NCBI RefSeq assembly: GCF_003790525.1
Contig: NZ_CP033635.1
Strand: one strand, 5' to 3'
Source of the DNA: Escherichia coli
Lineage (GTDB): Bacteria; Pseudomonadota; Gammaproteobacteria; Enterobacterales; Enterobacteriaceae
Length of the DNA: 64,000 nucleotides
Of this stretch, positions 31,201-34,200 are shown piece after piece. Every line of letters begins with the position of its first letter. The first letter of the stretch is position 1. Made by a program: the position numbers.

Positions 31201-34200
31201 GACCAACAACGTCGCGCCGGGCAAAAACATCTCCACTATGGGACGCTACTTTAAGGATGCGGGCTATCACACCTGTTACATCGGCAAATGGCATCTCGAC
31301 GGTCATGACTATTTCGGCACTGGCGAGTGTCCGCCGGAGTGGGACGCTGATTACTGGTTCGATGGGGCGAACTACCTTAGCGAACTGACGGAAAAAGAGA
31401 TCAGCCTGTGGCGCAATGGCCTAAACAGCGTTGAGGATTTACAGGCGAACCATATCGACGAAACCTTCACCTGGGCGCATCGCATCAGCAATCGGGCGGT
31501 AGATTTTCTGCAACAGCCCGCGCGCGCCGAGGAACCCTTCCTGATGGTGGTTTCGTATGATGAGCCGCATCACCCGTTCACCTGTCCGGTGGAGTATTTA
31601 GAGAAATACGCTGATTTTTACTACGAACTTGGCGAGAAATCACAGGATGACCTGGCGAACAAACCGGAACATCACCGCTTATGGGCGCAGGCGATGCCAT
31701 CGCCAGTCGGTGATGACGGGCTTTATCACCATCCGCTCTATTTTGCCTGCAATGACTTTGTTGATGACCAAATCGGACGGGTCATCAATGCCTTAACGCC
31801 AGAGCAACGTGAAAATACGTGGGTCATTTATACCTCCGATCACGGTGAAATGATGGGCGCACATAAGTTGATCAGTAAAGGAGCGGCGATGTATGACGAC
31901 ATCACCCGTATTCCGCTGATCATCCGTTCGCCGCAAGGGGAGCGGCGGCAGGTCGATACGCCAGTCAGTCATATCGATTTACTGCCGACAATGATGGCGC
32001 TGGCAGATATTGAAAAACCAGAGATTCTGCCGGGGGAAAATATCCTTGCCGTGAAAGAGCCACGCGGCGTAATGGTGGAATTTAACCGCTACGAGATTGA
32101 GCATGACAGCTTTGGCGGTTTTATTCCGGTGCGTTGCTGGGTGACGGATGACTTTAAACTGGTACTCAACCTCTTCACCAGTGATGAACTTTACGATCGC
32201 CGTAATGACCTAAATGAAATGCATAATCTGATCGATGATATCCGTTTTGCCGACGTTCGCCGCAAAATGCATGACGCCTTATTGGATTACATGGATAAAA
32301 TTCGCGATCCGTTCCGCAGTTACCAATGGAGTCTGCGTCCGTGGCGTAAAGATGCACGACCGCGCTGGATGGGGGCGTTTCGTCCACGCCCACAAGATGG
32401 CTATTCGCCAGTGGTACGCGACTATGACACCGGCCTACCGACACAAGGGGTGAAGGTGGAAGAGAAAAAACAGAAGTTCTGATGCATTATTGCTGTTCCT
32501 GGCCTACTTTTTCGGCGAGGAACAGTTTACAAGGAGCAACAATGAAAATTTCCCGCCTCAGAGAAGCGCCCGATTACCGCTTCTCGCTGGCTAATGAGCG
32601 TACTTTTCTGGCGTGGATCCGTACCGCACTAGGATTTCTGGCGGCGGGGGTTGGGCTTGATCAACTTGCGCCAGATTTCGCCACGCCCGTCATTCGCGAA
32701 CTGCTGGCGTTGTTGTTGTGTCTGTTTTCCGGCGGGTTAGCGATGTATGGCTACCTGCGCTGGTTACGCAATGAAAAAGCGATGCGTCTGAAAGAGGACC
32801 TGCCCTACACCAACAGCTTATTAATCATCAGCTTAATATTGATGGTCGTAGCGGTGATCGTTATGGGACTGGTGTTGTATGCCGGATAGCCGCAAAGCCA
32901 GACGCATTGCCGACCCAGGGCTGCAGCCGGAGCGTACATCACTGGCGTGGTTTCGTACCATGCTGGGCTACGGCGCGTTGATGGCGTTGGCTATCAAACA
33001 CAACTGGCACCAGGCGGGCATGTTATTCTGGATTTCGATTGGCATTCTCGCCATTGTGGCGCTGATCCTCTGGCACTACACCCGTAATCGCAATTTAATG
33101 GATGTCACGAATAGCGATTTTTCCCAATTTCACGTAGTCCGTGACAAATTTTTGATCTCCCTCGCGGTGTTATCTCTCGCAATACTGTTTGCTGTAACGC
33201 ATATACATCAACTTATCGTATTTATTGAGAGAGTCGCATGACAGGAAGTCAGGTCATTGATGCTGAAGAGGACAGGCATAAACTGGTTGTAGAGTACAAG
33301 GATGCTCTGCAACCTGCCGATTTTTATCACAATTTCAAACAACGGGGTATCCGCTCCGTACAGCTTATTCCCCATCTTGAATTTGATGACCGGGGCGATC
33401 TGACGGCCGCTTCGGTGACAGCAGAGCTGTGGGGGAAATTTTTAATTGCCCTGTTCGAGTGTTGGGTACGGGCAGATATCAGTCGTATTTCGATTGAGCT
33501 TTTTGACGCCACCCTACAAAAATGGTGTGGCAGCGAAAACCCGCAACCGCGCCGTGGCTGCCAGGCGTGCGACTGGCATCGCCTGTGCCCGCACGCTCGG
33601 GAGGAGACGCCAGACAACGTGCTTTGTGCGGGCTATCAGGCGTTTTATTCTTACTCCGCGCCGCATATGCGGGTGATGCGTGATCTGATAAAGCAGCATC
33701 GTTCTCCCATGGAGCTGATGACGATGCTGCGGTGACGTGAGCTTAAACGGGCTGCCCCTGATGCGACATCCGCGTCGCCAGCGGTAGCCAGCACAGCACG
33801 ATCAACAATCCCATTAAGGTCATCAACAACCCCAGGCTGCCCTGACCGGTTTGCGGCAACATCGCAGAGAGCGACGCCAGCACGCCGGAACCAATGTTTT
33901 GTAGACCGCCGACCAGCGCGCCAGCCGTGCCCGCCAGGAAAGGGAACGGCTCCATCGCGCCGCTGGTCGCCAGCGGAAACAGCATCCCGGCACCGAAAAA
34001 GAACAGCGCGGCGGGAACGAGCAGCGTCCAGACATTCATCACGCCAAACCAGTCGGGGATCCACATTAGCAAGCCAGCCAGCAGGCAGCAGATAACCGAC
34101 TGCCACATTAACGTGGAGAAGCGTTTATTGGGACGTCCGGCAAACCATGCGCCAAAAAACGCTGCCGGAATCGGCAGAATAAACAAAATACTGACCGTCA

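Follow-up and report, generated by a model that had tools for sequence, protein, structure and literature searches.

The window, by which we mean the whole 64-kb stretch of Escherichia coli DNA that was analysed, carries a cluster of five genes, yidK, yidJ, yidH, yidG, and yidF, all lying head to tail on the + strand. The gene emrD lies downstream of yidF on the - strand. The genes of the cluster and the features between yidJ and yidH are as follows.

29277-30992, + strand: yidK, a 571-aa ORF encoding a solute:sodium symporter, annotated as yidK in SMS-3-5 and K-12; first gene of the co-directional cluster
30989-32482, + strand: yidJ, a 497-aa ORF encoding a sulfatase (Pfam Sulfatase, E 2.8e-71), with its TGA stop codon at 32480-32482
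32483-32541, no strand: the yidJ-yidH spacer, a compact allele of 59 bp without yidI
32483-32530, no strand: the allele-specific core of the spacer, 48 bp in place of about 592 bp of K-12
32492-32526, + strand: a hairpin in the core, 35 nt, formed by a 12-bp imperfect inverted repeat with a 9-nt T-rich loop
32531-32536, + strand: the Shine-Dalgarno sequence AAGGAG of yidH, where identity with K-12 restarts
32542-32889, + strand: yidH, encoding a DUF202 membrane protein (Pfam DUF202, E 2.8e-19), with its ATG at 32542
32879-33241, + strand: yidG, encoding a DUF202 membrane protein, overlapping yidH by 11 bp
33238-33735, + strand: yidF, encoding a 165-aa short relative of the anaerobic sulfatase maturases, overlapping yidG by 4 bp

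The first two genes, yidK and yidJ, also overlap by 4 bp. At the far end of the cluster, the 165-aa YidF matched the NCBIfam maturase model sulfatase_rSAM only at model positions 160-245 of 363, with 76 bits where the cut-off is 349. The N-terminal radical-SAM core is thus absent from this protein.

A preliminary description of this DNA had reported that only 59 bp separate yidJ from yidH and that no ORF of the size of yidI is present there on either strand. The spacing is exact (32483-32541, between the stop codon at 32480-32482 and the ATG at 32542), and the ORF list for both strands contains no ORF of the 149-aa class in or across the spacer. The sole ORF to cross it extends yidH upstream in frame, beginning with an ATG at 32482 that overlaps the stop codon of yidJ (TGATG) and staying open through to yidH (32482-32544); YidH would be 135 aa long if translated from this codon. 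We did not judge this start to be significant, since a run of 20 stop-free codons would arise by chance with a frequency of about 38% by our own estimate, (61/64)^20. The annotated ATG is favoured, as it has the strong AAGGAG and is kept in all genera.

The yidJ-yidH interval in K-12 and in the window

In E. coli K-12 MG1655 the corresponding genes (b3679-b3674) run yidK, yidJ, yidI, yidH, yidG, yidF, and those shared with the window have the same order and orientation. The DNA of the two strains is 97.7% identical over yidK and yidJ and 98.4% identical from yidH through emrD. Between these blocks the two differ. The K-12 gap measures 603 bp and comprises a hairpin with a 13-bp stem, yidI (450 bp, 149 aa) in the opposite orientation, and a yidI-yidH region of 107 bp, whereas the window has 59 bp, 48 of which are unrelated to K-12. 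The preliminary description had placed a K-12 gene of roughly 149 aa in this neighbourhood and had left two options, a difference between strains or an error in the K-12 gene order it assumed. The K-12 order proved to be as assumed: the reference has yidI at this place rather than elsewhere, its junction is not compact, and it is the window that lacks the gene.

When K-12 YidI was used as a tblastn query, the entire 64-kb window gave no match at E<=1e-5. The same analysis recovered YidK, YidJ, YidH, YidG, YidF, and EmrD in the window at 100%, and the K-12 control for YidI gave 2e-93. We assigned to the YidI family (PF27700, Uncharacterised_IM_YidI, a label taken from precomputed annotations) ORFs of about 149 aa that carry the motifs GPFSxPxP and GG(M/I)RKENxW and are detectable by tblastn with K-12 YidI; the 64-kb window contains no member. 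The missing yidI is a genuine strain difference and a common polymorphism.

The alignment of the two strains defines what has changed. The yidJ gene of the window follows the K-12 sequence up to and including the stop codon, and identity restarts at the Shine-Dalgarno sequence of yidH, AAGGAGCAACAATG; the stop codon of yidJ and the ribosome-binding site and start codon of yidH are identical in K-12 and the window. Between these points, 48 bp of the window stand opposite approximately 592 bp of K-12, made up of the hairpin after yidJ, yidI, and the yidI-yidH region. When the first 47 bp of the core were compared with both strands of the 603 bp of K-12, the best local score was 18, against a mean of 16.7 for shuffled sequences, and 95 of 300 shuffles did equally well. 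This local alignment with its shuffle control excludes a remnant of yidI in the spacer. Nor does the window carry a simple deletion allele, as joining two points of a yidI-bearing allele does not account for the sequence of the core. Because the 48 bp are unrelated to the K-12 segment, we regard the change as a replacement and not a simple deletion. Comparison of the core with the compact spacers and whole loci of ten outgroup genomes gave nothing over background. In what follows, the window-type compact allele is a 59-bp spacer with the core TGCATTATTGCTGTTCCTGGCCTA(C/A)TTTTTCGGCGAGGAACAGTTTAC lying between the TGA of yidJ and the AAGGAG of yidH; the window carries this allele.

The hairpin in the core has the arms CTGTTCCTgGCC and GGCgAGGAACAG on either side of its 9-nt loop. 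Its predicted RNA fold has a centroid energy of -20.7 kcal/mol, and in an 81-nt context the fold has a z score of -3.35, with none of 200 shuffled sequences folding as well. Being an inverted repeat that contains G+C and comes directly after a stop codon, it bears a likeness to a rho-independent terminator or a REP element, but neither reading was accepted. A terminator would have the stem, which is present, but only TTT follows it, no T-run is found on either strand, and a terminator and promoter scan of window positions 32300-32700 called no sites. A REP, BIME, or MITE was rejected on the basis of a junction probe, which in each of 5,243 genomes matches a single place; the 48-bp core is therefore not a dispersed repeat. 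The hairpin that follows yidJ in K-12 has the same position and a 13-bp stem but is unrelated to that of the window. A search of the spacer and its surroundings against Rfam returned two chance-level matches, both inside yidH (E 6-9 and 12-14 bits, where the gathering thresholds are 65-66).

Distribution of the alleles and of yidI

We surveyed 5,426 complete E. coli genomes, 5,420 of which have the locus, and four allele classes account for 5,419 of these. The full yidI segment is present in 3,716 genomes. The window-type compact junction, counted where at least 80% of a 121-nt junction probe was covered, occurs in 1,412, or about a quarter of sequenced E. coli. A junction with IS200/IS605 tnpA/tnpB, from which yidL, yidK, yidJ, and most of yidI have been removed, is found in 289, and a separate small deletion of the type seen in HH97, in a K-12-like background, is confined to 2 genomes (HH97 and HH45). 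The yidI probe and the compact-junction probe are essentially mutually exclusive, so the compact genomes do not carry yidI elsewhere.

The IS allele, seen in CREC_5 (L003, positions 3200-4841) and 288 other genomes, contains a decayed IS200/IS605 element in which tnpA and tnpB are both pseudogenes. The element abuts the 5' end of yidI, and the allele links the region of the 6-phospho-alpha-glucosidase gene to the first codons of yidI. HH97 (L089, positions 5001-5085) and HH45 have yidI deleted from a background that matches K-12 at 99.96-99.97% identity. Of the K-12 spacer, the first 43 bp, including the hairpin after yidJ, are retained in the HH97 allele; next comes a filler of about 24 bp, GCTGAACAGTGCCCCGATACGGGG, which has a small hairpin of its own.

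The gene yidI is present in K-12, in O157:H7, O55:H7, O111, and O26 strains, and in strain 042, which together we take to represent phylogroups A, E, B1, and D, with strain 042 as the presumed example of phylogroup D. The compact allele is found in SMS-3-5, CFT073, avian O78:H4/APEC strains of the CH4793 haplotype, and MS10858, which we assign, on the same footing, to phylogroups F, B2, and G. Phylogroups B2, G, and F form one clade. SMS-3-5 is 99.9% identical to the window over a 1.2-kb probe and has an identical 59-bp spacer, and CFT073 has a 59-bp gap between yidJ and yidH, known from its annotation alone. Where spacers were read, that of the window equals that of SMS-3-5, and MS10858, CH4793, and Z1323CEC0015 show one SNP in the loop (C or A). 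Spacers so nearly identical point to a single origin of the compact allele in E. coli. The haplotypes that flank it are varied: over the left flank, the window is 96.8-97.9% identical to the other compact strains and 97.7% identical to K-12. In Z1323CEC0015, the compact allele sits between flanks that otherwise resemble K-12 (98.7% on the left and 99.6% on the right), and the variable sites of this strain depart from K-12 over approximately the final 1.2 kb of yidJ and the initial few hundred bases of yidH. This mosaic pattern of SNPs indicates a recombination tract that carried the compact allele.

For the genus Escherichia outside E. coli, the comparison covered E. albertii and a divergent genome, L005. 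E. albertii has yidI beside yidH and keeps yidI, yidH, yidG, and yidF in the absence of yidL, yidK, and yidJ, and L005 has a truncated yidI at this site. In E. albertii NBRC 107761 (L004, positions 3004-3454), yidI seems to be frameshifted, as two tblastn segments do not join in one frame; intact 149-aa E. albertii YidI proteins exist. The full order yidK-yidJ-yidI-yidH, with recognisably homologous yidI junctions, is found in Citrobacter youngae, Phytobacter massiliensis, and Klebsiella huaxiensis. Yokenella (L093) has yidI in the same neighbourhood (emrD ... yidE, ibpB, ibpA) with both flanking clusters absent, the gene standing alone between a PALP-domain gene and yidE, and Leclercia has it in an unrelated context, beside mazEF. 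The family PF27700 was found as about 110 clusters, only among Enterobacteriaceae. Compact spacers of Kluyvera, Pluralibacter, C. werkmanii, Enterobacter sp., and Pseudocitrobacter vary by genus, and two Pseudocitrobacter genomes share one.

Within E. coli, yidI is 97.0-98.7% identical between strains, and E. coli and E. albertii form one continuous alignment at 88% across yidI, yidH, yidG, yidF, and emrD. For yidI, dN/dS was 0.04-0.2 in comparisons between genera and about 0.3 among E. coli strains, and GPFSxPxP and GG(M/I)RKENxW are conserved as motifs. The low ratio between genera, together with the conserved motifs, indicates that the gene is real and that purifying selection acts on it. 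Many E. coli YidI clusters (P0004-P0013) are 142-145 aa long, with 94-96% identity to K-12 at 100% query coverage, which suggests in-frame length variation of the protein within the species.

The window varies at a second spot, which lies between ilvN and uhpA. The 3.4-kb segment there (38048-41423) is missing from E. albertii, L005, and the K-12-like CREC_5; in SMS-3-5 it holds two genes annotated as 'hypothetical protein' (479 and 160 aa), the site in strain 042 has hypothetical genes (478 and 160 aa), and CFT073 has a different gene there, encoding a DUF6708 protein. The toxin gene tisB lies at about 35207-35296 on the - strand of the window and is also present in K-12, 042, and CH4793, and in CFT073, MS10858, Z1323CEC0015, and HH97 the ysdE-ivbL interval has no tisB and is shorter by about 530 bp. 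On the other side of the cluster, yidL is followed directly by yidE in CFT073 (L097, positions 5892-8501), which lacks the glv PTS, 6-phospho-alpha-glucosidase, and yidP genes that lie between yidL and yidE in strain 042.

Origin of the compact allele

The explanation we favour is that yidI is ancestral and that the compact allele of the window is a derived loss, later moved by recombination; for this explanation as a whole we put the probability at roughly 0.85. The gene is taken to be ancestral because relatives have it at the same site, its divergence keeps pace with that of its flanks, and purifying selection acts on it, and because compact spacers differ by genus. The ancestor of E. coli would have carried yidI, encoding a 149-aa inner-membrane protein of family PF27700, in the orientation opposite to that of its neighbours, so that it converged on yidJ and diverged from yidH. 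A single event would have swapped about 592 bp for 48 unrelated bases in a way that spared the stop codon of yidJ and the ribosome-binding site and start codon of yidH. The most likely place for this event is the branch from which phylogroups B2, G, and F descend. The compact allele would then have passed vertically and at times entered other backgrounds by homologous recombination. The 48 bp may have been imported from a relative outside the sample, synthesised as filler in the course of repair, or left behind as a mobile-element footprint; none of these sources is supported by the evidence.

Several Enterobacteriaceae genera have yidJ followed directly by yidH, and the place of yidI beside mazEF in Leclercia indicates that the gene is able to relocate. 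It could be argued on these grounds that the compact junction is the ancestral state in E. coli and that the lineage of phylogroups A, B1, E, and D gained yidI by a later insertion. We consider this very unlikely, since E. albertii and L005 have yidI at this site, as does strain 042, and since its position, with homologous junctions, is shared by Citrobacter, Phytobacter, and Klebsiella huaxiensis. The divergence of yidI, moreover, parallels that of its flanks both within E. coli and against E. albertii, the compact spacers differ from genus to genus, and neither target-site duplications nor mobile-element ends were seen flanking the gene. That the region was collapsed by an assembly or sequencing artefact is refuted by the occurrence of an identical junction in 1,412 independent complete genomes, CFT073 and SMS-3-5 included.

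Another possibility, which differs from derived loss within E. coli in the donor alone, is that E. coli acquired the compact allele through homologous recombination with another species, one in which yidI had been lost much earlier. Import would account for the lack of relationship between the 48 bp and K-12, and the core is indeed non-homologous and no remnant of a deletion. Recombination demonstrably moves the compact allele within E. coli, and other genera have long-standing compact junctions. However, no compact spacer seen in those genera resembles the 48 bp, and in a variable-site matrix of eight E. coli loci no flanking site adjacent to the junction splits the compact alleles of the window type, four in number, from the three that have full yidI, so that no foreign tract is visible. 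We regard such an import as unlikely. There is barely any chance, in our estimation, that the 48 bp and their hairpin are the footprint of a mobile element of the IS200/IS605 or MITE type whose imprecise excision took yidI with it. Elements of the IS200/IS605 family have subterminal hairpins, and in 289 genomes tnpA/tnpB of such an element abut the 5' end of yidI, with yidL, yidK, and yidJ deleted. Yet the core, aligned with the 2-kb IS region of CREC_5, reached a best local score of only 20 against a shuffle mean of 18.3, a value equalled by 47 of 200 shuffles, and it is single copy in every genome, unlike REP, MITE, or IS ends.

Transcription of the cluster and significance of the loss

On the layout of the genes, yidK-yidJ-yidH-yidG-yidF in the window are predicted to form, probably, one transcription unit. 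This prediction is made because the genes on either side of the spacer overlap by 4, 11, and 4 bp, because the yidI-yidH region has been lost, and because only a hairpin with no T-run stands between yidJ and yidH. The lost yidI-yidH region is where any promoter specific to yidH would lie. Promoter and terminator scans called nothing at the junction in either allele, and since no promoter was called upstream of yidH in K-12 either, the promoter scan says little about the operon question. We would offer only as an improbable speculation that the loss of yidI, along with that of the hairpin behind yidJ and of the stretch upstream of yidH, fused two transcription units into one sulfatase operon in the extraintestinal-pathogen-rich phylogroups B2, G, and F, and that the 48-bp filler is the trace of unusual repair or template switching or of an undescribed small mobile element. 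If such a fusion did take place, expression of the sulfatase, transporter, and DUF202 genes would be altered.

The absence of yidI is an ordinary accessory-gene polymorphism that is already visible in the public annotations of CFT073 and SMS-3-5, and it is not novel. A literature search on yidI, a gene name that can be confused with personal names, returned a genome announcement only. For the window, the missing gene means a lineage-specific loss and no error of sequencing or annotation, and it matters little beyond annotation hygiene. It also means that yidI, although a real and conserved gene, is dispensable to E. coli. The compact allele may serve as a lineage marker for B2, G, and F strains, and it offers a natural experiment for studies of the uncharacterised YidI or of regulation in the yidKJ/yidHGF sulfatase cluster.

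The arrangement in the window can be compared with that of other genera that lack yidI at this junction. In Kluyvera, Pluralibacter, C. werkmanii, and Pseudocitrobacter, the genes yidK, yidJ, yidH, and yidG lie head to tail without yidI, and 32-114 bp separate yidJ from yidH. Their compact spacers are unrelated to that of the window, and some contain REP-like elements; the differences among genera fit repeated, separate losses of yidI. Between yidG and the YidF-like match, these genomes have about 470 nt more than the window, which fits a full-length maturase in place of the short YidF. Once the compact allele had arisen in E. coli, yidH, yidG, and yidF probably came to be read through from yidK and yidJ, as the layout of the locus suggests for these yidI-less genera.
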